Below, in pieces: positions 1,419 to 38,718 of a DNA stretch of 42,163 nt. Source of the DNA: a virus (taxonomy: Duplodnaviria; Heunggongvirae; Uroviricota; Caudoviricetes); IMG/VR virus record IMGVR_UViG_2728369608_000007; one strand, written 5' to 3'. Position 1 is the first letter of the stretch; each line of letters begins with the position of its first letter. The position numbers were made by a program, and so were the translations under genes. Below the pieces are notes generated by a model that was not told the DNA's origin, did no database searches, and saw nothing but the letters and a program-made list of their open reading frames with translations.

Positions 1419-1769
1419 CTAGAAAATCTGCATAAGGGGGAGAAATCCCCCACCTGTAATAACATAACTACTAAAATTAACACCTTGTTCGCACAACTCC
1501 TCCACCAGCACGACAAGATGCCGCACACTGCGCCCCAGCCGATCCAGCTTCCAGACAACCAGAGTGTCACCTGCCGATAATGTCCTGAGCAGTTTTTTCA
1601 GTCCCGGCCTTTCGGACTTTGTACCGCTTATCTTGTCTTCAAAAAACAGCTCGCATCCTGCACAGTTCAGCGCATTACGTTGTAGATCTGTGTTCTGGTC
1701 ATTTGTTGACACACGTACATAGCCAATAAGCATAGTGGATCCCTCTGACAAAAGCAGGAATGATGCCAT
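1419..1769 (-). pseudogene. DNA invertase (Pin/Gin/Hin serine recombinase family), truncated after about 87 codons
   Basis: MLIGYVRVSTNDQNTDLQRNAL...DTLVVWKLDRLGRS...GVNF matches the invertase N-terminal catalytic domain; the downstream about 100 aa including the HTH are absent and replaced by 17 unrelated codons; homology ends near 1473. Confidence 0.85.
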
Positions 1770-2257
1770 TTGCTCGTTATTTCTGCATTTTCATAAACGT
1801 TGGTTTGGGAGAAGGTGCCCCAGCTATTGGCGTTCCGTTCTTCTGGCCGTCCGCTGCAATGCCAAATTCTGTCATCGACAGCTGGTCCGGTATGGTGTTT
1901 TTGAAGTTTAACGGGGCGAAATTTTCTGCCTCTGATTACCCTGTGCTGGCGAAAGTGTTTCCTTCGCTGGTATTACCTGAAGCCCGCGGTGATTTCATTC
2001 GTATCTGGGATGACGGGCGAGGTGCAGACGGTGGTCGCGAATTATTAAGCTGGCAGGCAGCTACAAACTTTTCTCAGTTTGCCGGGAATATAGGCGATGG
2101 TGCGGGCCACACAATTAATTTTCATGATGGTATCGCCGGAAATCAGCCAGGATTTTCACGATTTAATTTCACCAGTAACTCTGTGGGTGATGGTGTGAAT
2201 TTTGTTGCCGTCAGACCGCGAAATATTGCATTTAACTTTCTGGTGAGGGCTAAATGA
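1760..2257 (+). CDS. alternative tail-fibre C-terminal (variable) segment, silent orientation
   Basis: GVPFFWPS...YP.L...LP..RG.FIR.WDDGRG motif typical of Mu S / P1-type tail-fibre C-termini; reading frame begins at the crossover site. Confidence 0.7.
   Translation: MMPFARYFCIFINVGLGEGAPAIGVPFFWPSAAMPNSVIDSWSGMVFLKFNGAKFSASDYPVLAKVFPSLVLPEARGDFIRIWDDGRGADGGRELLSWQAATNFSQFAGNIGDGAGHTINFHDGIAGNQPGFSRFNFTSNSVGDGVNFVAVRPRNIAFNFLVRAK
1788..1813. other. gix/hix-like recombination crossover site (left end of invertible segment)
   Basis: TTTTCATAAACGTTGGTTTGGGAGAA; shares the core GGTTTGGGAGAA in inverted orientation with the site at 3610-3635 and resembles hix/gix 26-bp sites. Confidence 0.6.
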
Positions 2258-2850
2258 TGACCCCAATTTTTGATGAAAATGGACTGGCTACAGTGCCGGG
2301 CGATATGCGTTGTTTTTATTATGATGCTGAAACATCTGAGTATACGGGCTGGTCTGATGAATATATTAATACTGGCGTAAGTATGCCCGCCTGTTCCACT
2401 GGAATTAACCCTGGCGAAAACATTCCGGGAAAAGTGGCTGTATTTACAGGTAAGGGATGGAGCCATGAAGAGGACCATCGCAATGAGACTGTTTACTCAA
2501 TCGAAAATGGCGCAGCTGTTACAGTGGATTATATCGGTGCCATCAAAGATGGTTATGTCACGCTTTCACCGTTAACGCCATACGATAAATGGGATGGTGA
2601 GAAATGGGTGACGGATACCGAGGCACAGCATAGCGCCGCAGTAGACGCGTCAGAAGCACAGCGCCAGTCACTGATTGATGCAGCAATGGCTTCCATTAGT
2701 CTGATTCAGCTGAAATTACAAGCCGGGCGGAAACTGACGCAGGCAGAAACAACCCGGCTTAACGCTGTGCTGGATTACATTGACGCGGTGACGGCAACAG
2801 ATACCAGCACCGCGCCGGATGTCATCTGGCCTGAACTGCCGGAGGCGTAG
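2254..2850 (+). CDS. tail fibre assembly protein (alternate copy, U'-like)
   Basis: Tfa-like sequence; convergent with and overlapping the 3' end of the expressed tfa gene, as in G-segment cassettes. Confidence 0.8.
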   Translation: MMTPIFDENGLATVPGDMRCFYYDAETSEYTGWSDEYINTGVSMPACSTGINPGENIPGKVAVFTGKGWSHEEDHRNETVYSIENGAAVTVDYIGAIKDGYVTLSPLTPYDKWDGEKWVTDTEAQHSAAVDASEAQRQSLIDAAMASISLIQLKLQAGRKLTQAETTRLNAVLDYIDAVTATDTSTAPDVIWPELPEA

Positions 2851-3262
2851 GCCATTCAATATCTGGCGCACCGGAAGTATCGACCAGTTCCAGTGCGTCC
2901 AGATAATCCAGCCACAAATTATATTGCACCAGTTCCTCACCTTTCAGGCGACCAATCGCCGCTTTACCAGGCCATTGCTTACTGTTTATGTATTCGTTGA
3001 CCTGATTAATCAATTGCTGCTTTTTCAGTTCGGCTGCGGCAATTTGTTCCTCATGAGTTGGCGGTGGAATATCAATCCATGCAGGCATTCCGTCGATGAC
3101 ACCTCTGTATTTTCCTTCTGGTGCTTCCTTCATAAATTCGGCAGCAACAGTGTCGTCAATTTCGATTCCATCATCGGGCCATTCGCCGGATTCCTGATAA
3201 GCGATTTTAAGCTCCACAGGGAAAAACGCATTTTTATCGGCACTGAAAATATATTTCTGCAT
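2822..3262 (-). CDS. tail fibre assembly protein (expressed orientation)
   Basis: 146-aa Tfa-like protein directly downstream of the tail-fibre gene. Confidence 0.8.
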   Translation of the reverse strand: MQKYIFSADKNAFFPVELKIAYQESGEWPDDGIEIDDTVAAEFMKEAPEGKYRGVIDGMPAWIDIPPPTHEEQIAAAELKKQQLINQVNEYINSKQWPGKAAIGRLKGEELVQYNLWLDYLDALELVDTSGAPDIEWPTPPAVQAR

Positions 3263-3264
3263 TT

Positions 3265-3978
3265 CTACCGTCCTATCGAAATATAACTGAATCTGTATTG
3301 CTGTGAGATATCACTGGTTGCCACACGCCACGCTGAATTACTGATATGTTCAAAATTTACAGACAAAACCTGCGGGGCAGGATTCGACGGGTCTGACTGA
3401 ACGGCATCAGACATAACACTGACTGAAATCATCGGCTGATTAGGGAATGGTATAGGGAAGTGTCCACTGATAAAGCGGGTCGTGTTTCCTGAAAAAGTGC
3501 CAAACTGAACAATATATCCACCTGGTAGCCTGAACCATCCCGAACCAGAAGCGAATGCTCCCATATCCGGTATCTGATTATCTCCTGTGCCCACATTCCG
3601 TTTTGCCGCTTCTCCCAAACCAAGGTTTTCGAGAGCTGTTTTCACCGTGCCGTCCGATTTGATATCGCCAAACGGATTCTTGCGGCTCAGGTATTCAACA
3701 GCAAACCCCGATCCCAGCAATTCAACAAAACCGGGCAGATCACCATTATCAAGCACATCCCGTTGCGTTTTATCACTTACAAACTGGGCCAGAGCTGCAG
3801 CAATAAAGCTGGCCTGCCGAATAACCTTATTGACTTGCGCACTGGAGGCTTTCCCTGCTGTAAATCCAGATAAAAGCGCGGGCAACGCTTCCCATTCCTC
3901 CTGCGATATAACATTGGCATTTCGATCCGTTGCAAACGCTTTAAAGTCATTTTTCGCCATCAGAGTAATACTCCCCAT
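3265..3978 (-). CDS. tail fibre protein (constant N-terminal part plus currently joined variable C-terminal part)
   Basis: 237-aa ORF; crossover site lies inside it at 3610-3635 (codons for [10 protein letters not shown]). Confidence 0.8.
3610..3635. other. gix/hix-like recombination crossover site (right end of invertible segment)
   Basis: TTCTCCCAAACCAAGGTTTTCGAGAG, inverted relative to the site at 1788-1813. Confidence 0.6.
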
Positions 3979-4640
3979 GCTCCTACATCAAAACCACTGA
4001 TGAATTCGTTATCCATATCAAAACCAAAAAATTTTGAGCCTTCCGATGGGGTTTCCACCGAAGGTGTTTCAATGCCACCCGCCCATACCCCGGCGGCTTT
4101 TACTGTGAGATACCCCTGTTTAATTGCCGCAATTAACTCACGCGATACATCTGAAATATCAGTATCAGGAAAGACCCAGACCGATATCGTCATGTCCTGG
4201 TTATCGACTATCTGCATTCGCAGCCCGGATCCTGCTGTTGCCGCGTCAAGAATTGCCGGAAGCGAATCATTCCGTCCGTCCCAGTTATTAATCGCAATCT
4301 TCGCTTTAAGAATGACACGATAAGTTTCATCGCTGAGATACATGTATCCTGAATCAGGATCGTATGGTCCCTGCCATACCCCCTGATCATATCCAAGCCC
4401 GTCGGTATCCCAGCTGAAATAGACACCTGAGATAGGCTGGCTGACAACACGGCTACGTCCGATCCACAATCCAAGGATGTCAAGTTGCACACCAACCGCA
4501 GAGTCAATATCAAATGCACTAATCAGCCCTCTGGTGGCAGCCGCAACATCAATAAGTGGCCGGGTCATCAGATCAACATGCGCAAGAAATTTAGGTTTGG
4601 TGGCGTGGTAGTTCGTGATTAGTTCGGTGTATTTGCTCAT
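3960..4640 (-). CDS. putative tail/baseplate protein (gpI-like position)
   Basis: 226-aa ORF between the baseplate J-like gene and the tail fibre; overlapping stops/starts typical of a tail operon. Confidence 0.6.
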
Positions 4641-5836
4641 GACTCCACCGTTATAACGATATTTTTCGGGGTACAGGACGCAGATTCGTTGTATCTGATA
4701 TCAATGTTTGATGACGACAAAGCCCCCGGGGATTTCCCAATCGTCAGTTCCTGAATATCGTAATAGCGTGCATTCCCGCCACTCACCACGCCAAGATTCG
4801 CCGGTGAGTAAATGCGACTTAAAAGGACCGAATCACCAATCATCAGACTATTGATATAGTCGGAAATAGCCTGCTGGATCTGCTGCCCTATCTGTGAGGT
4901 ATAACCCGTAAAAACTTTTAATTTAATCAGGGCATAAACAGGCACATCACTGGAACGCGAGAATTTGATTACATGGGGATTGCCGTATTTATCCGGAACC
5001 GTAACGGATGTTGTACCGTGAGTGGCTGTCCCCTGGCCTTTATTCCCTCTGATAGCCTGAGCAATATCCGTTACATCACCGCCATCCACAATTACAGCAA
5101 CAGAGTGTGGCGGTAACCCGTTACCGTCCTCCGAACCAGTATCGTTTTCATAGAGTTTGTGGCGGGTTACACCGGTAACATTAGAAACAGCACCATCCAG
5201 TGCTTCAAATGGGGTTATTGATGGCAACGCAACACTTTGCGACTGGCGGATACGTAACTCAGCGTCAGTTTCTGCCGGAGTGCCCACAGTGGCTGCAGCA
5301 GGATTGGTTACCGAAACCCAGCCACGGGTTGGCGTATTAATTTCAGTGATAGTTCCAGCCAGCGCCGCCACTGCACCACTGACGGAACATGTTGCGGTCA
5401 CCATCACTGTACCATCCACGCCTACCACCACTGAAGCAGGCAAACGCCATATCACATTATTACTGTCTTTCACGCTGCCATTAATGATGGTTGTTCCGGC
5501 AGTTCCTGTAAGAAGCAAATCAACCGTAGAGTTCGTCGCGCCTTTACGTGAAATACCATTTATTTTCACGTTACAGGTCAGTGCAGCCCCATAGCCGGTT
5601 GCCGGTGAAAAACAGTTGTAGACAGTTATCGCAGTATTATTGGCATCATGAATCGCCAGCGCCATCAGAGCCACCATCTGGCCGTCTTTGCTGTCCGGTT
5701 CGAGGTAGGCATCACTGCCATAAATCTGCTGAAAATAGCTAATCAGGGTGCTGAGTATCGTCTGATAATCAGGCGCACTGATCCCCTCCGCGGTTACCTT
5801 TGCAGATAAACCGAGAGAATCAAGGTTCAGAGCCAT
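4637..5836 (-). CDS. baseplate J-like protein
   Basis: 399-aa protein with the composition and position of baseplate J family proteins. Confidence 0.75.
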   Translation of the reverse strand: MALNLDSLGLSAKVTAEGISAPDYQTILSTLISYFQQIYGSDAYLEPDSKDGQMVALMALAIHDANNTAITVYNCFSPATGYGAALTCNVKINGISRKGATNSTVDLLLTGTAGTTIINGSVKDSNNVIWRLPASVVVGVDGTVMVTATCSVSGAVAALAGTITEINTPTRGWVSVTNPAAATVGTPAETDAELRIRQSQSVALPSITPFEALDGAVSNVTGVTRHKLYENDTGSEDGNGLPPHSVAVIVDGGDVTDIAQAIRGNKGQGTATHGTTSVTVPDKYGNPHVIKFSRSSDVPVYALIKLKVFTGYTSQIGQQIQQAISDYINSLMIGDSVLLSRIYSPANLGVVSGGNARYYDIQELTIGKSPGALSSSNIDIRYNESASCTPKNIVITVES

Positions 5837-6189
5837 TACGCCTCCGATGTAACAGTCGTTATTCCATAAAGAGTGTCGATTTCAGCGGAAAACATGACAC
5901 GTCGGGTCGTGGTATCCAGCGTCGTATTGAAAGAGAGGATTGATTTAACGCCCTGCGTTTCGAGGATGCGCTTACGGATCGCCAGGTTGTAGGTTTCCGG
6001 CTTCTGCTTACCGAGTACGGACTGGATCCACGGAGTCCCCTCGGTGGTGTCGAGAAACCATTGCCCATACCACAATTCGAATCGCGTTTTTACCGCCTGC
6101 GCCACGGCCTCCGGTGAGTTAATCAGCCAGGTGTCATCACCGCTGCCAAAGGTGTAATCGCCATCGGCGTCTTCACGTCTGTATCGCAT
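5836..6189 (-). CDS. baseplate wedge protein (W/gp25-like position)
   Basis: 117-aa ORF translationally coupled between the V-like and J-like genes. Confidence 0.55.
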   Translation of the reverse strand: MRYRREDADGDYTFGSGDDTWLINSPEAVAQAVKTRFELWYGQWFLDTTEGTPWIQSVLGKQKPETYNLAIRKRILETQGVKSILSFNTTLDTTTRRVMFSAEIDTLYGITTVTSEA

Positions 6190-6941
6190 CAGTTTACCCC
6201 GTCGGTACTGCTTCCACCGCGCTGAACACCACCATGAGTGTGCGTATCATCGATTGGCTTGCCGTTAGCCTTCACGCTCCCCAAAAACTCAACAGCACCA
6301 GTGATTTTTGAAGCCACACCAGAAACCACAGACCCCACCATGCCCCCCATCCAGGTTAACAGGCCATGAATGGTTACTTTCTCAGAAAAATCAGCCAGGG
6401 GGGCAACCACATCAAGCCCCCCCGGAGCGACAATTTTAATTTTCCTGGTATCAGGATTAAGCTCAAAATAGGTGCTGCCGTCGTCACTACGCAACTGTGT
6501 GGCACTGGTATTAATACCGCTAATCTTCCTAGCCTGCGACTGGGGACCGACAATACAAAACGCATCCGATAAATCATGCATTCTGTCATCAACCGTCTCC
6601 TGTATCCCGCCGCTCTGCCACCAGAAATCAATACAACGATCGGCAAAAACGACAAGACACTCATCCCCAGCTTTTACCGGAAAAGTCAACGTACAGCCTC
6701 CGCCGCGCGGGAATACCACTGGCACATCCACCAGCAATGGGTAATTTTTGGTAATGCGGTTACCGTCGTTATCCTTTTCAACTGACCGGATAGCTGGCTG
6801 CACAACCGCCGTCACCGCGTCAGGATCGAATGACTGAATAATGCCAGGCAAGGCGACACGGATCTGGTTCTTTGTTGTTTCCCGTTCAGATTTAAATGTT
6901 TCGGCAAGATCGCCACTGCGGGTCTGGTCAGTTACTGCCAT
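6189..6941 (-). CDS. baseplate spike / assembly protein V-like
   Basis: 250-aa protein, Gly-rich C-terminus, position upstream of W/J. Confidence 0.65.
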   Translation of the reverse strand: MAVTDQTRSGDLAETFKSERETTKNQIRVALPGIIQSFDPDAVTAVVQPAIRSVEKDNDGNRITKNYPLLVDVPVVFPRGGGCTLTFPVKAGDECLVVFADRCIDFWWQSGGIQETVDDRMHDLSDAFCIVGPQSQARKISGINTSATQLRSDDGSTYFELNPDTRKIKIVAPGGLDVVAPLADFSEKVTIHGLLTWMGGMVGSVVSGVASKITGAVEFLGSVKANGKPIDDTHTHGGVQRGGSSTDGVN

Positions 6942-7001
6942 TGGTAGGCTCCAAAAAGCAAAAAACCCGCCGGGTGGCAGGTTTTATCTCATGAAGAATG
7001 A

Positions 7002-7514
7002 CTATCGGTGGATAGTATTAAAGTATTCAGAAAGCTGATTATCAGTTATCAAACACAACTGCATCAAATAAATAGAGTATTTCAATAACTTTTCATCACG
7101 AACGGGGGCGGGACGTAAATACTTCCCGCCGTGAAAGAGATTATTTCTTATATACGGGATCTGCTTTAATGCTTCAGCAAGAGAATGAGGTTCGATTGGA
7201 GGTTTATCCTCCCACGAAAAATCATGCCTCTGCTGCTTCACAGGTTGCTGACATAGATACTCAACTGCCCTATCGACATTTCTATTTCCAGTAGGATATA
7301 AAGGCCGCGTATCATCAGTAGCGTAGCGGCTCCAGTCAGCACCGATTAGATAATTTCTACGATCAGTTTTTTTGAAATTAATTCTTTTTAACGCATATTC
7401 GAAACGCGAAAAATAATTAAAAAACCTTATAACAAGAGTAATATCAATTCCGCCGAGAAGTTCCTGAAAGTCAGGGTCTTGAAATGAATTCAAAGGATCA
7501 TCATCAACTGTCAC
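7002..7514 (-). CDS. hypothetical protein with RNxxxH (HEPN-like) motif; moron inside the tail operon
   Basis: 170-aa ORF in visibly AT-rich DNA; motif IRNNLFHGG; GC-rich stretch plus T-run immediately downstream of the stop. Confidence 0.6.
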   Translation of the reverse strand: MTVDDDPLNSFQDPDFQELLGGIDITLVIRFFNYFSRFEYALKRINFKKTDRRNYLIGADWSRYATDDTRPLYPTGNRNVDRAVEYLCQQPVKQQRHDFSWEDKPPIEPHSLAEALKQIPYIRNNLFHGGKYLRPAPVRDEKLLKYSIYLMQLCLITDNQLSEYFNTIHR

Positions 7515-7846
7515 TTGCTGCTCACTTTTTTACACGGGAAAGATCCAATGATTTTCGGCGCGTCCATGCTGTTCTGCAGCAGCTGGACGTTCAGGAAAGC
7601 TTTTCCGTTACGTTTCACAAACTCAAAGCCGTAATTGTTACCATCACGGGAAGGCATCAGGCCCATGTCCATTTTCATGTTTGAATAGTCACCATCTTTT
7701 CCCAGAAATTTTATCTTCTGTGATGTGACAGTTTCACCGTTAATAACAGTCATTCCGTCACCGGTCATCGTGTAGTTGCCGCACTGAATTGCAGCCATCG
7801 CCGGAGCAGTAACCATCATAACTAACGCCAAACATAACCGTTTCAT
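7511..7846 (-). CDS. small secreted protein (signal peptide, two Cys); moron
   Basis: N-terminal MKRLCLALVMMVTAPAMA signal-peptide-like segment; 4-nt overlap with the downstream ORF. Confidence 0.6.
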   Translation of the reverse strand: MKRLCLALVMMVTAPAMAAIQCGNYTMTGDGMTVINGETVTSQKIKFLGKDGDYSNMKMDMGLMPSRDGNNYGFEFVKRNGKAFLNVQLLQNSMDAPKIIGSFPCKKVSSK

Positions 7847-8910
7847 TAAAGCCCTCTTTCCCTCGCTGATGAGGAAACAAGATCCGCCGCGCCACGCGCT
7901 TCACACATCATATCCATGTACCACGCCTGGCCCCTTGTGTCGCCAGTGTACATAATCCCGCGCACAATATAAACGCCATCCGTTGCGATGCTGGCAGGCT
8001 GCGATGTGGTGCCGCTGAGCGTGATATTTCCGTCCGTGTTCTGGTCGGTGATCTGACCACCAGCCATCGCAATATCGTTGTTCGACAACGCGGTACGATA
8101 GACGGAAGCCTGATCCAGCTGAATGAGCCCGTTAACCCGGATGTTCGGATTAATAAGCGCGCGGACGTTTACGCCGTTACCGATAGTCTGCTGCGGCATT
8201 CCAATAAGCCCGGTAGCGCTGTTGAGCACAATCGCTTCGTGAACATATTCGTTATTCACCACCATCTGGCGCTGACCGTCCACGAATTGCCATGTTGCGC
8301 CACATTGTCCGGCTACGTTATCCATTAGATGCCGCGTCATGCCAAAGAGTACCCGCCCCCGGGGGAATACAGTAGCAGGCATTTCAGGCGTCAGGCCTTC
8401 GGTCGCGCCTTTGGCTTCGAAGTCTTTCATCAGCGCACGGTTCACATCAGCGACCGTGTAACCGGCAGCCAGCGTCTGTGAGGTTATACTGGTAGCAAAA
8501 GCCAGATCAGTATCTGCTGCCTGAATCAGGACGTAGGTATCAACCGGACTGTCTTTTCCTGTGACCGAGTAGCGAATTTCACCGCTGAAAATCAGTCCGT
8601 AGTTGCGGCCATCTCTCTGGCCCACGTCCGCCGCGTCAACTTCCCGCACGGTCCCTACGTCGCTTGCTGACACCTCCGGCGCGATACCGTCGTAACCGGC
8701 AATCAGACGCACTTTCGAAAACTCCTGCCCGGTAATTCGGTTCACAGTATCTGCCGAGAGGTTATAAATTTTGATAGTCCCTACCCGGGACGCGCTGCTG
8801 ATGTTGAACCAGTCGATCGTAAAGGTGACTTTGAAATCACTTAGCTCAATTCCCTGACCGTTCCCGTCCACAAGCTGCAGCTCGAAATGTCTCATCCAGT
8901 TCTGTGACAT
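7846..8910 (-). CDS. putative baseplate hub / tail protein
   Basis: 354-aa ORF in the tail operon between tape-measure-proximal genes and the baseplate genes. Confidence 0.55.
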   Translation of the reverse strand: MSQNWMRHFELQLVDGNGQGIELSDFKVTFTIDWFNISSASRVGTIKIYNLSADTVNRITGQEFSKVRLIAGYDGIAPEVSASDVGTVREVDAADVGQRDGRNYGLIFSGEIRYSVTGKDSPVDTYVLIQAADTDLAFATSITSQTLAAGYTVADVNRALMKDFEAKGATEGLTPEMPATVFPRGRVLFGMTRHLMDNVAGQCGATWQFVDGQRQMVVNNEYVHEAIVLNSATGLIGMPQQTIGNGVNVRALINPNIRVNGLIQLDQASVYRTALSNNDIAMAGGQITDQNTDGNITLSGTTSQPASIATDGVYIVRGIMYTGDTRGQAWYMDMMCEARGAADLVSSSARERGL

Positions 8911-8912
8911 GC

Positions 8913-9215
8913 TTACTCCGTTGATACCAGTAAATGGCTGCGACCGCCCAGGTCAGTTTTTGTGGGGTAATCCTGTGTGTTGTCATCACAGACCACCACC
9001 AGCTTAAAACCAAGCCCCATACAGGCGTACTGCGCCAGCAGGTCAGCACCAGTGACGAGAGGAATACCGGAGATTACCGGCTCCCCTCTGTCGTTCTGCA
9101 GGTCCATAATCCAGTACAGATCGCGCCATATGATGCTAATCCGCCAGGTGACACCACCCAGGACGATGCTGAACTGCTGGTTGTCCGCTGTCAGCGGAAT
9201 TTCCTGAATTGTCAT
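8913..9215 (-). CDS. tail protein (small)
   Basis: 100-aa ORF tightly packed in the tail operon. Confidence 0.5.
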   Translation of the reverse strand: MTIQEIPLTADNQQFSIVLGGVTWRISIIWRDLYWIMDLQNDRGEPVISGIPLVTGADLLAQYACMGLGFKLVVVCDDNTQDYPTKTDLGGRSHLLVSTE

Positions 9216-9802
9216 TAGCCGCCCCCCAGTAATGACGCCACGTTACCCGTGATGCTTTTCAGCAGTGAAGTATCTGGAGGCTTTGTGGTTTTGTTGCCGC
9301 TGTTCTGTACCGCCGACGTGCTGGCCCCTTCCTTCATGTTGGTTTTATCCGCGACGGTAATCTGCTGTGTCCGGGAGATAATGACCTCCCTCAGGGTGAG
9401 GACGGCGGACAGGACGTTTTCGGTTGTCTTGTCCGTCGTCACTTCCAGCGCCCGGATCAACATGTTGCTGTACAGCCGTTTACCGGTTACCACATCGAAG
9501 GGGATACGGCTTTCCTGCAGACCCAGTAGCTCCTGATACGTCTGCTGAGGACTCAGGCCGAGCAGGCTGGTAGCCGTCAGGTTACTGGCAAAATCCAGCA
9601 ATGCGCCGCCACCGGCGAAACCAACCTCCATCACCACTTCTGACGGTTTTTTATAGGCATGATCAGCGACAGCGGCCCCGACCTCTACCGGATGCTCTGT
9701 TATTTCAAGCATATCTGTATGCTTCTCTGAAATAACAACACTGGGAACAATCATTCCTATTTTTCTGCTCTGCTGATGAAAAAGTGTAGAGAGAATATCC
9801 AC
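9215..9802 (-). CDS. tail protein
   Basis: 195-aa ORF immediately downstream of the tape measure gene. Confidence 0.5.
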   Translation of the reverse strand: MDILSTLFHQQSRKIGMIVPSVVISEKHTDMLEITEHPVEVGAAVADHAYKKPSEVVMEVGFAGGGALLDFASNLTATSLLGLSPQQTYQELLGLQESRIPFDVVTGKRLYSNMLIRALEVTTDKTTENVLSAVLTLREVIISRTQQITVADKTNMKEGASTSAVQNSGNKTTKPPDTSLLKSITGNVASLLGGG

Positions 9803-33453: not shown

Positions 33454-33505
33454 CCCTACTTCATAGACGCCCGGTTAAACACCGGGCTACTGATTAGGCG
33501 TATAA

Positions 33506-34135
33506 TCACTCAGGAATCTTAATCTTTCTCAATTCTTTATTTAGTTCACAGATCTTTTTCTTAGACGGGAAAGTATCATACATCCAAAAACCAACAGTCT
33601 CTAAAACTATTATCATAACCATATACACAAGATAATTTAAAAGGCCTTCATTTTGCCCTATGGAAATAATGCAGATAATAGAAAAAAGGGTAAACAGCAC
33701 AAAACACAGAAAGGAAAACAGACGACTAATAATAAATAAAAAACCTGAAAAATCAACATTAATAAAAAACACTCCGTTATCTTTCTCTATATAATTCTGA
33801 AGCTTAATCAACTGATTTATATACTGTCTTTTTTCTAATCTATTGCAAATGTAAATAACATCTCTTCGGTTATAAGAGGATTGCAATTTCAGCGCATCAC
33901 GAATAATTTTATCATTTATTCTTTTTTCTATGGCTTTCTTATCCTCCTTATCCAGATAACGTTCATACTTAATTAAATATAAAATTAACTTCTTGACATA
34001 TTTAGGCTCTTTATACTTATAATTAAAAATGATCTTTCTTATCCAGACTCCCATAACAATCAAACATGAAAAAATATATCCAGCTATTTTCTCCAGATGC
34101 TCTGTATGGTCAATCAAGTATTGGATCATATGCAT
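33506..34135 (-). CDS. hypothetical membrane protein (moron, antisense to the replication operon)
   Basis: 209-aa ORF in very AT-rich DNA; hydrophobic segments at N-terminus and in the C-terminal third; K/E/Y-rich middle. Confidence 0.65.
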   Translation of the reverse strand: MHMIQYLIDHTEHLEKIAGYIFSCLIVMGVWIRKIIFNYKYKEPKYVKKLILYLIKYERYLDKEDKKAIEKRINDKIIRDALKLQSSYNRRDVIYICNRLEKRQYINQLIKLQNYIEKDNGVFFINVDFSGFLFIISRLFSFLCFVLFTLFSIICIISIGQNEGLLNYLVYMVMIIVLETVGFWMYDTFPSKKKICELNKELRKIKIPE

Positions 34136-36309: not shown

Positions 36310-37071
36310 ATGCAGGAACTAACTGAAATGCCGATCAACTATCCATACCCGAGAGAATCTTTTCCTGACTTTTTGAGGGAGTGTGGGTTCACCAATTTTT
36401 CCCACGAACAGCGTGAGACTTATGACTGCTATCGTTTAACGAATGGCGTAATTGTTAACCTTTACACCACCCGGACCATTCAGTTTCAAGGGAACCCTCA
36501 AGAACGTCCCAATGTTGAAACTGCAATAATGTCCCATTTAGGAACGCCCCCCACGGCAACACCACTAGCCGTAGAACAGCCATCTGAGCTTCCCAAAAAG
36601 ATATTCATTGTTCACGGCCATGACCATACTGCAAAGGAACAACTTGAGCTAATCCTTCATAAACTTGGATTACCAGACCATTTCATTTTGCAGAATACGG
36701 GAGGGACTGGACTCACCATTATTGAAGAGCTTGAACGTGAAATTGGGCAAGGACAAACTGCTACTCGTTTCGGGATTGTTCTTTTGACACCTGATGATAT
36801 GGGATACTCAAAGCGCGCCGGTGAAGCAGAAATCCAACCCCGCGCAAGACAGAACGTTGTACTCGAGATGGGTATGCTTCTTTCGTCCTTAGGGCGCAGC
36901 AATGTAGCAATCCTTCAGAAACAGCACCTAGAACAGCCTTCTGATGCTAACGGGATTTTGTATCTGAATTTCAACGACCATGTACGTGAAACAGTTCCTC
37001 GTCTAGTGCAACGGTTACAAAATTCTGGTTTCGAATTTACACAAGCTCAAATAGCTAACGCTTCCTCGTAA
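36310..37071 (+). CDS. hypothetical protein with C-terminal TIR-like/SLOG-type domain
   Basis: KIFIVHGHD ... FGIVLLTPDD ... ARQNVVLEMGMLL matches the TIR-like nucleotide-binding domain signature (conserved Glu in NVxxExG); N-terminal about 100 aa unknown. Confidence 0.7.
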   Translation: MQELTEMPINYPYPRESFPDFLRECGFTNFSHEQRETYDCYRLTNGVIVNLYTTRTIQFQGNPQERPNVETAIMSHLGTPPTATPLAVEQPSELPKKIFIVHGHDHTAKEQLELILHKLGLPDHFILQNTGGTGLTIIEELEREIGQGQTATRFGIVLLTPDDMGYSKRAGEAEIQPRARQNVVLEMGMLLSSLGRSNVAILQKQHLEQPSDANGILYLNFNDHVRETVPRLVQRLQNSGFEFTQAQIANASS

Positions 37072-37800: not shown

Positions 37801-38718
37801 ATGGCTAAGCAACAAACGAAAGAAATAAACCAAGATGATGTAAAAGACAACAAAAATATGCCACCTCATATATGCGGCATTATTATGCCAATTGCGGACA
37901 TAGAAGGTTATCCCACTGGACATTGGAGAAATGTTCATGACATTATTTGTGAAGCATCAAATGATGCCGGATTCAAGGCAAATTTGGTAAGTTCAGATGA
38001 TGATGTTGCAGTAATACAAAAACGAATTGTTCAAAATCTTTATGAAAACCCCATAGTTGTTTGCGATATAAGTGCTCGAAACGCTAATGTAATGTTTGAA
38101 TTAGGAATGCGTCTCGCATTTGACAAACCGACCGTAATTATTAAGGACGAGCGCACTCCTTATAGCTTTGACATTTCATCAATTGAACATTTAGAGTACC
38201 CTTCGGATTTAAGATACCAATCAATCAATTTATTCAAAGAAAGACTTGCGAGCAAGATAAAAGAAACATATTTAAAGTCAGTAACTGATCCTGAATACAC
38301 AACATTCCTCAAACATTTTGGCACTTTCAAAGTTGCACAACTAGACCAGAAAGAAGTATCAGAAACTGAGTATCTGGCATCTGAGATTAAAGATATCAAA
38401 TCATTATTGATATCTCTTAGGGCAACAGCAACGACAAAATCCAGATTTTTCGACTCACCGAAAAATTACTCGCAGCAGGAAATTGACAACTCTGTAGATA
38501 TTATTAAAAATGGAGTTGCCAGTTATACTATAAGGAGTGAAGGATTTAGTATATCAAAATCAGCACTAGAAAAGTTACGCCAAAGACTACACAACGCAGG
38601 ATTTCAAGTCGAGCAAATAGTATTGACAGGAAAAGAAGTAATTATTCATCTGTCATCACCTTTAATAAATGAAGAAGAAAATATTTTTAAAGATGCAATA
38701 GTAACAGCACTATTATAA
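37801..38718 (+). CDS. hypothetical protein with N-terminal TIR-like/SLOG- or nucleoside 2-deoxyribosyltransferase-like domain
   Basis: AT-rich gene; ICGIIMPIAD ... IVVCDISARNANVMFELGMRL shares the D..N(A/V)xxExGM pattern with the 36310-37071 product. Confidence 0.65.
   Translation: MAKQQTKEINQDDVKDNKNMPPHICGIIMPIADIEGYPTGHWRNVHDIICEASNDAGFKANLVSSDDDVAVIQKRIVQNLYENPIVVCDISARNANVMFELGMRLAFDKPTVIIKDERTPYSFDISSIEHLEYPSDLRYQSINLFKERLASKIKETYLKSVTDPEYTTFLKHFGTFKVAQLDQKEVSETEYLASEIKDIKSLLISLRATATTKSRFFDSPKNYSQQEIDNSVDIIKNGVASYTIRSEGFSISKSALEKLRQRLHNAGFQVEQIVLTGKEVIIHLSSPLINEEENIFKDAIVTALL

Follow-up and report, generated by a model that had tools for sequence, protein, structure and literature searches.

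Prophage hotspots for defence genes, morons and HEPN abortive-infection proteins are already established, and several described systems come close to the two genes analysed here, orfA and orfB, which lie between the baseplate hub gene and the spike gene of a temperate contractile-tail phage (IMG/VR virus record IMGVR_UViG_2728369608_000007; 42,163 nucleotides, hereafter the window). HepS ('HEPN Solo') of the Salmonella prophage Gifsy-1 rests as a non-toxic tetramer (PMC13043305; PDB 9OIJ/9OIK); the tail-tip protein J of siphophages that infect the cell activates it, whereupon it cleaves the anticodon loops of tRNAs (PMC13043305). The Tha (tail-activated HEPN) system of Staphylococcus aureus prophages is also activated by tail proteins (PMC11087260), and in lactococci AbiD/AbiF (Abi_2) and AbiV (HEPN_AbiV) are stand-alone HEPN proteins that act alone. 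With regard to location, the nearest counterparts are the Z/fun and old/tin hotspots of P2-like phages (PMC9122126; 10.1101/2024.10.15.618418), of which Z/fun is likewise embedded among tail genes, and the lambdoid morons bor and lom (Juhala et al. 2000 and Cumby et al. 2012, as these are cited in a preprint).

The reading that we prefer, with a probability of roughly one half, is that orfB encodes a stand-alone HEPN ribonuclease (RNase) that would be made in the lysogen and serve in abortive-infection defence, and that it sits in a two-position hotspot beside an independent orfA; this reading draws on sequence comparison, structure modelling and analogy with HepS and Tha. The hub-spike interval itself is best explained as a two-position accessory-gene hotspot in temperate contractile-tail phages of Enterobacterales. 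An earlier note on this DNA had described two co-oriented, overlapping open reading frames (ORFs) between the hub and spike genes, and these are indeed present; its interpretation as a whole is partly supported. The features of the interval are given below in order of position.

6189-6941, minus strand: spike gene, 250 aa, with the PF18352 N-terminal domain (5e-44) and an Apex motif; conserved right flank, named membrane-puncturing spike protein in RefSeq.
Between orfB and the spike gene: spacer of 60 nt, containing the hairpin and T-run.
6952-6985, minus strand: terminator-like hairpin AAAACCTGCC-ACCC-GGCGGGTTTT of 10 pairs, then the T-run TTGCTTTTTG, with its end some 10 nt upstream of the start codon of the spike gene.
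7002-7514, minus strand: orfB, 170 aa, GTG start, which overlaps the orfA stop (GTGA).
7125-7151, minus strand: IRNNLFHGG, orfB residues 122-130, candidate Rx4H catalytic motif (R123, N124, H128), from conservation and profile alignment.
7386-7412, minus strand: FSRFEYALK, orfB residues 35-43, second conserved block, in the first long helix (helix 25-44), with E39 invariant.
7511-7846, minus strand: orfA, 111 aa, ATG start, which overlaps the hub stop by 1 nt.
7514-7523, minus strand: left cargo junction, from comparison of orfA 3' ends; the C-terminal tail of orfA is variable in the alignment.
7846-8910, minus strand: baseplate hub gene, 354 aa (PF22759 E217_GP41, 5e-05, 23 bits, below the 27-bit cut-off); conserved left flank.

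When orfB is set beside the described HEPN systems, it resembles HepS in being a single small protein of an Enterobacterales prophage, encoded at an accessory-gene position with no conserved partner or inhibitor gene, and in the Rx4H spacing of its motif (R100-H105 in HepS, R123-H128 in orfB). We detected no sequence homology and no close structural homology between orfB and HepS (PDB 9OIJ), and no plausible HepS ORF with R100-x4-H105 was found in the LT2 Gifsy-1 record for direct comparison. The likeness to Tha lies in a prophage-encoded defence with a HEPN RNase that acts by abortive infection (PMC11087260); Tha differs in having a cognate inhibitor, Ith, from an overlapping antisense gene, and in lying near the integration/excision module, and no antisense partner was found for orfB. 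With the lactococcal Abi proteins orfB would share the stand-alone character, and members of its family give sub-threshold Abi_2 matches, one of them adjoining a HEPN_AbiV gene; however, there is no match at curated thresholds, and the orfB family has blocks of its own (FSRFEYALK and PPKKQ...W) that fall outside those models. The P2-like hotspots and the hub-spike interval have in common conserved flanks and highly variable AT-rich cargo, which includes defence and toxin genes in the P2-like prophages and a YafO toxin module here. They differ in that the window belongs to the E217/Pam3-type baseplate lineage, with its slot in the hub-spike position, and in that this slot has two positions, one of them taken by an exported protein that is nearly constant, and is bounded on the right by a conserved terminator.

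Relatives of orfB were recovered in large numbers. The indexed search gave 27 clusters of homologues, and an exhaustive profile search gave 2,392 representatives (50% identity, E up to 0.001), 606 of them with E up to 1e-30 and nearly all 155-180 aa in length. In a scan of one genome per species, at least 440 genomes were found to encode a relative, and the taxa include Proteobacteria, Planctomycetes, Verrucomicrobia, Chloroflexi, Bacteroidota, Acidobacteria and one methanogen. Neither orfB nor orfA has a significant family in Pfam, NCBIfam or PADLOC, and in PHROGs both fall only in families of unknown function. The orfB family, which is large, widespread and absent from Pfam, NCBIfam and PADLOC v2, appears to be new.

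The earlier note had pointed to the string IRNNLFHGG as an instance of the RNxxxH pattern of HEPN active sites, and this observation holds, since R123 and H128 are invariant in 81 orfB homologues with a mean column identity of 26%; an alignment of 25 homologues likewise shows R123 and H128 invariant and N124 nearly so. By a rough estimate, the chance of an RNxxxH in a protein of this size is about 1%, and it is the conservation of the pattern across 81 divergent homologues, not the presence of the string, that makes it meaningful. The residues invariant in the 81 sequences are E39, Q95, R123, F127, H128, G129, K131 and R139, while N124, N125 and the FSRFEYALK block are nearly so. The same motif occurs in all six fusion proteins of the family that were inspected. 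A few orfB relatives form the C-terminal domains of longer proteins (P0167, P0175 and P0184); in two of these the fusion partner is DUF6884, a YaaA-like domain for which DNA binding has been proposed, and in one the N-terminal region looks GNAT-like by eye.

The AlphaFold2 model of orfB (predicted local distance difference test, pLDDT, 91.4; predicted template modelling score, pTM, 0.86) is mainly helical and places the motif at the end of helix 112-127, followed by a loop and then by the long helix 137-157. The predicted fold, an all-alpha helical bundle with the motif in one of its core helices, resembles that of solved HEPN domains, and its best structural matches are consistently HEPN nucleases. 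When the family profile was compared with the PDB, it gave a weak alignment (E = 0.027) to the HEPN domain of Csx1-Crn2, in which R123, N124 and H128 fall on R401, N402 and H406, the residues of its R-X4-6-H motif (PMC11317161). When the 81 members were scanned singly, the three most-hit Pfam families were all HEPN families and all sub-threshold, namely Abi_2 (four members), HEPN_Apea (two) and HEPN_Swt1 (two), with E-values for these few members of 0.027, 0.0075 and 0.044, respectively. A phmmer search of orfB against the PDB returned only noise. The suggestion in the earlier note of a HEPN-type protein is supported as far as the conserved motif and the predicted fold closest to HEPN domains are concerned, while the hidden Markov model search of HEPN and Abi families that it had called for gave sub-threshold matches only. 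Overall, as judged from conservation and modelling, the orfB family most likely consists of ribonucleases of the HEPN fold whose R-N-x3-H site is invariant. It could be argued instead that orfB is HEPN-like and helical but not a nuclease, for example a regulator that binds nucleotides or nucleic acids, or an adaptor, or that it is not HEPN at all. We regard this as unlikely, since residues such as R, H, E39, Q95, K131 and R139 that stay invariant across very distant taxa are what an active site typically shows, HEPN nucleases are consistently the closest structural matches, and the motif aligns with that of Csx1-Crn2.

We examined the hub-spike interval in 82 loci (74 IMG/VR contigs, seven E. 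coli (Escherichia coli) genomes and phage 606R2) whose hub shares at least 96% identity with that of the window, and clustered the proteins encoded between hub and spike into families; the hub is at least 96% identical across the 80 IMG/VR loci that were kept as best matches. The gap between hub and spike measures 396 to 1,861 bp, and 21 protein families make up its 17 architectures. The first position is occupied by an orfA-family protein in 76 of the 82 loci, and in the other six by unrelated exported proteins, family F10 in four and family F14 in two. The proteins seen in place of orfA, for example at L004:1319-2044 (E. coli OkiPb01676), L058 and L082, are a 241-aa lipoprotein with the lipobox LTSC (an 'HMG-box domain-containing protein' in RefSeq) and a 153-158-aa signal-peptide protein. 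The second position holds F3-F2 in 23 loci, F4-F2 in 15, a DUF4282 protein in nine, a YafO module in seven, F8-F9 in five, orfB in three and no cargo in three; the remaining sets occur in one to three loci each. At least 15 cargo sets exist besides orfB. Every cargo family is AT-rich, with a GC content of 0.35-0.475 compared to 0.51-0.54 in the flanks.

The hub-spike stretch (query 6189-8910) is matched in 352 complete E. coli genomes, only 36 of which cover at least 80% of it. In annotated E. coli gaps, proteins with DUF4282 or DUF2335 are found, as are a YafO toxin together with a partner, the 241-aa protein that bears the RefSeq name 'HMG-box', and two kinds of two-gene modules without assigned function. 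The YafO toxin was confirmed (Pfam 4e-17), and its module is the only slot cargo that was confidently identified; the PADLOC matches to HEPN_IX (0.009) and PycTM (9e-4) are weak. The commonest cargo (39 of the 82 loci) is a 243-276-aa protein, from the unrelated families F3, F4 or F21 and in one case with a weak TPR match, followed by the 127-153-aa F2 (for example L002:1318-2477 of E. coli T28R and L007:1318-2470 of E2348/69), in the same slot as 7002-7514. The pattern SRAYYG/ALYH...R.N.DY of F2 looks HEPN-like, and its database support is the HEPN_IX match just mentioned. The F8 cargo (L041:391-945 of the gap segment) is a 184-aa membrane protein, to which the PycTM effector match belongs; no cyclase gene was found in the slot. 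Beyond these loci, the order hub, orfA-like gene, cargo and spike is also found in a Pantoea stewartii prophage, where the cargo is a 49%-identical homologue of orfB, and in the Klebsiella phages Mulock and ST340-VIM1phi10.1, where the cargos are different.

Comparison of the orfA 3' ends of 12 loci located the left border of the second position: the cargo variants are homologous up to ...CKKV, in the final ~3 codons of orfA. Homology restarts at the hairpin. The terminator-like hairpin, whose RNA folds with a z-score of -2.96 (none of 200 shuffles folds as well), corresponds to the GC-rich stretch and T-run that the earlier note had placed at the end of its cassette. The element is there, but it belongs to the phage backbone and not to the cassette, since the same stem, with 16 different loops, is found in 78 of the 82 loci regardless of cargo, including the cargo-free L033. 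The exceptions are L030, with a different hairpin, L045, with a mismatched copy, and L031 and L039, with none. Because it is kept whatever the cargo, and even without cargo, we take the hairpin to be a backbone element that forms the right border of the slot. The loops partly follow the type of cargo, with GGATG in all four F10 loci and TTCG in all F11 loci, and a near-invariant stem combined with a loop that varies with cargo suggests recombination junctions inside or beside the hairpin. According to the model that we propose, the first position would hold an envelope-targeted protein, usually of the orfA family and at times a lipoprotein or another signal-peptide protein, and the cargo in the second position would be swapped by recombination between the orfA 3' end and the hairpin before the spike gene.

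Within this slot, orfB is dispensable, horizontally exchanged cargo. Among the 352 E. coli genomes with a match to the hub-spike stretch, 25 carry it, and it occurs in 25 of 5,426 E. coli genomes overall, always in single copy and at least 99.8% identical. Its GC content of 0.384 is clearly AT-rich, as the earlier note had said of both genes, whereas that of orfA (0.452) is only mildly so, compared to 0.544 for the hub and 0.511 for the spike gene. The moron proposal of the earlier note can be retained for orfB in the sense of deviant composition and of presence in some loci and absence from others, but not for the two genes as a unit. The lambdoid morons are likewise extra genes of deviant composition between genes that are adjacent in relatives, and have a terminator after them (according to the papers that the preprint cites); orfB differs from them in that it has no recognisable promoter of its own and no intergenic space, and in that the terminator which follows it is owned by the backbone. 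The earlier note would have given up its proposal if the protein lacked a HEPN fold and the RNxxxH residues varied among homologues, or if both proteins were baseplate components present in all related phages. For orfB, the motif is conserved, the predicted fold is HEPN-like, and the presence/absence comparison shows the gene to be absent from 79 of the 82 related loci.

In 73 loci from different species no conserved partner was found, the largest cluster of neighbours having two members, and the family is, like HepS, stand-alone and often found on prophages. Prophage copies occur in E. coli, Pantoea and Klebsiella and in a prophage remnant. As for distant members, one lies on an integrative element, between a HEPN_AbiV gene and genes for DUF4268, RNase_T, TIR_2 and Mrr-DEAD proteins; one follows a 1,257-aa nSTAND3 NTPase; one is located 15 nt downstream of a type I restriction R subunit (HsdR); one stands beside an HsdR_N gene; and one follows an XRE and M78-peptidase pair. 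On account of these defence-island contexts and of two prophage precedents studied by experiment, the single-protein HEPN defences HepS and Tha, we infer that orfB is an RNase that stays latent until triggered and then aborts infection by other phages. The protein would be made in the lysogen and kept inactive as an oligomer until a superinfecting phage supplies a product that activates it; by cleaving tRNA or other RNA, it would then abort the infection. A 30%-identical homologue of orfB was also observed in the tail operon of the unrelated Klebsiella phage ST101-KPC2phi6.1 (L099:3971-4489), directly after a DUF6246 gene that itself follows the gene for an Ig-domain tail protein; together with orfB of the window, this homologue indicates that members of the family have come to lie in phage tail operons more than once.

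Several results weigh against the proposal of a lysogenic defence nuclease. No significant match of orfB to a curated HEPN model was obtained in Pfam, PADLOC or NCBIfam, and a Foldseek comparison of the orfB model with the PDB found nothing that matched (best E = 2.7). Only five of the eight sampled non-prophage contexts are defence-related, the other three being uninformative. Expression is the weakest link: orfB overlaps the preceding gene and has no intergenic space for a promoter of its own, and promoter-like sites at 6100-9300 were not above chance (six found, 3.7 +/- 2.0 expected), so that orfB may be expressed only late, together with the tail genes, in a lytic role of the phage's own. 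This leads to the main rival, namely that orfB is a late RNase that serves the lytic cycle of the phage by degrading RNA of the host or of competitors, or by countering host defence, and gives the lysogen no protection. Its translational coupling to orfA in a late baseplate operon speaks for such a function, as do the promoter scan and the homologue in the Klebsiella tail operon. We nevertheless consider it rather improbable, since distant members of the family are chromosomal and belong to defence islands or restriction-modification operons rather than to phages, and since orfB is missing from nearly all related loci. The terminator also bears on this point. A terminator in an operon with the antiterminator Q would halt only transcription that is not antiterminated, and Q is among the annotations of the window's phage. 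Since a strong terminator is kept at the end of the slot in such a phage, it suggests, by indirect reasoning, that the slot is transcribed without antitermination, and hence that its genes could be expressed in the lysogen.

The product of orfA appears to be of a different kind. The earlier note had described a signal-peptide-like N-terminus and suggested a periplasmic protein, and inspection of the sequence together with 30 homologues bears this out: the N-terminus, MKRLCLALVMMVTAPAMA|A, has a basic n-region, a hydrophobic core and an A-x-A site, and the predicted signal peptide comprises residues 1-18 (window 7846-7793). Of the cysteines, which the note had counted as two, there are three, with C5 inside the signal peptide and C22 and C105 invariant in the mature part. 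Among homologues the N-terminus is variable and the mature part highly conserved, and we conclude from these features that orfA is very probably exported. The family (phrog_3443, 2.7e-53) comprises 410 homologue clusters across Enterobacterales, some titled 'Secreted protein'; it is known from phages of Klebsiella, Salmonella, Yersinia and Citrobacter. All 12 phage records with the same hub contain it, as do eight more distant phages of Klebsiella and Citrobacter. The model of orfA, of moderate confidence, shows an N-terminal helix followed by a small beta-sheet domain, for which no informative structural neighbour was found. That a lipoprotein or another exported protein fills the first position when orfA is absent suggests that this position is reserved for an envelope function. 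The protein probably acts independently of orfB, in the periplasm, and superinfection exclusion, that is, blocking the entry of related phages, is a reasonable guess for its role.

The distribution of orfA and orfB also bears on the remaining alternatives. Both proteins might be structural or assembly components of the baseplate, as their position within the baseplate operon and the presence of orfA in nearly all relatives could imply, but this is very improbable, since orfB is lacking in most relatives, orfA carries an export signal and gives way to F10 or F14 proteins in six loci, and neither protein matches structural protein families. The least credible alternative is the two-gene cassette of the earlier note, a functional unit such as a toxin-antitoxin or sensor-effector pair: the overlap of the orfA stop and orfB start codons and the adjacency of both families in the Pantoea prophage speak for it, but it is largely refuted by sequence comparison, because orfA reassorts independently, following the hub with ~15 different downstream cargos or none and occurring without orfB in 73 of its 76 loci, because its signal peptide would keep it from meeting a cytoplasmic protein, because orfB relatives elsewhere have no conserved neighbour, and because the shared slot accounts for the Pantoea adjacency. 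In addition, orfA alleles that are 97-100% or 54-70% identical to that of the window pair freely with the same cargos, the YafO module being paired with a 99% allele in L013 and with a 61% allele in L006. The translational coupling of orfA and orfB can be understood as a by-product of the junction, because the point where cargo meets the backbone lies in the final ~3 codons of orfA. A type II toxin-antitoxin reading was considered and rejected on the distribution of the genes and on the export signal of orfA: co-occurrence is not obligate, and orfB relatives occur without orfA.

The query stretch is essentially identical to the induced E. coli prophages vB_EcoM-689R2 and vB_EcoM-606R2, and the host genes that flank the 606R2 phage in its record are annotated as tRNA adenosine deaminase, phosphatidylglycerophosphatase C and YfhH. 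The remaining genes of the baseplate operon are as follows.

9215-9802, minus strand: Dit-like protein.
8913-9215, minus strand: Pam3-type plug (Pam3_gp18), upstream of the hub.
5836-6189, minus strand: 117-aa gene, whose counterparts are named sheath initiator.
After the 117-aa gene, minus strand: Baseplate_J protein, then a DUF2612 protein, whose counterpart is named Phage_Wedge1.

Outside this operon, the early region encodes a 253-aa protein (36310-37071, plus strand) with matches to PADLOC PDC-S35 (1.2e-108) and Pfam CAP12-PCTIR_TIR (2.9e-31), which by these matches is a TIR-domain candidate defence gene of the same prophage; the neighbouring ORF 37801-38718 has a weak TIR-effector match (1e-6). 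A 209-aa ORF (33506-34135, minus strand) lies where the GC content of the window is lowest (0.28 over 33501-34000), on the opposite strand to its flanking genes, which encode an Enc34-type ssDNA-binding protein and a protein annotated as DNA polymerase in 606R2. This ORF had no Pfam or PADLOC match and is probably another accessory gene. At 1419-3980, a DNA invertase gene (606R2 annotation; ~1419-1733) stands beside oppositely oriented genes for a tail fibre and a tail-fibre assembly protein, an arrangement reminiscent of the invertible host-range segments of Mu (Gin) and P1 (Cin). No match to Rfam was obtained anywhere in the window.

None of the papers covered by a literature search describes the hub-spike hotspot, and both the hotspot and its two-position layout with a conserved terminator border appear to be new. 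Since the slot is recognisable by its conserved flanks and terminator, it could be mined for new defence or exclusion genes in E. coli, Klebsiella, Salmonella and their relatives, as has been done for the P2 and P4 hotspots. We put forward, tentatively and with somewhat more doubt than belief, a reading that joins the two parts, in which orfB would be the first member of a new family of HEPN nucleases that abort infection as single proteins, and the slot would at the same time be an undescribed two-tier immunity hotspot. The near-constant periplasmic protein would block the entry of related phages, and the swappable intracellular effector would kill infected cells. If this were true, more than a dozen further cargo families would become new defence candidates. 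The function of orfA is a separate question, that of a periplasmic protein maintained in the baseplate operon across genera without an assigned function. Finally, if orfB protects lysogens, it would add to the known defences a compact (~165 aa), partner-free and very widespread HEPN family that is absent from annotation resources, and a name could be given to many 'hypothetical proteins' of defence islands.

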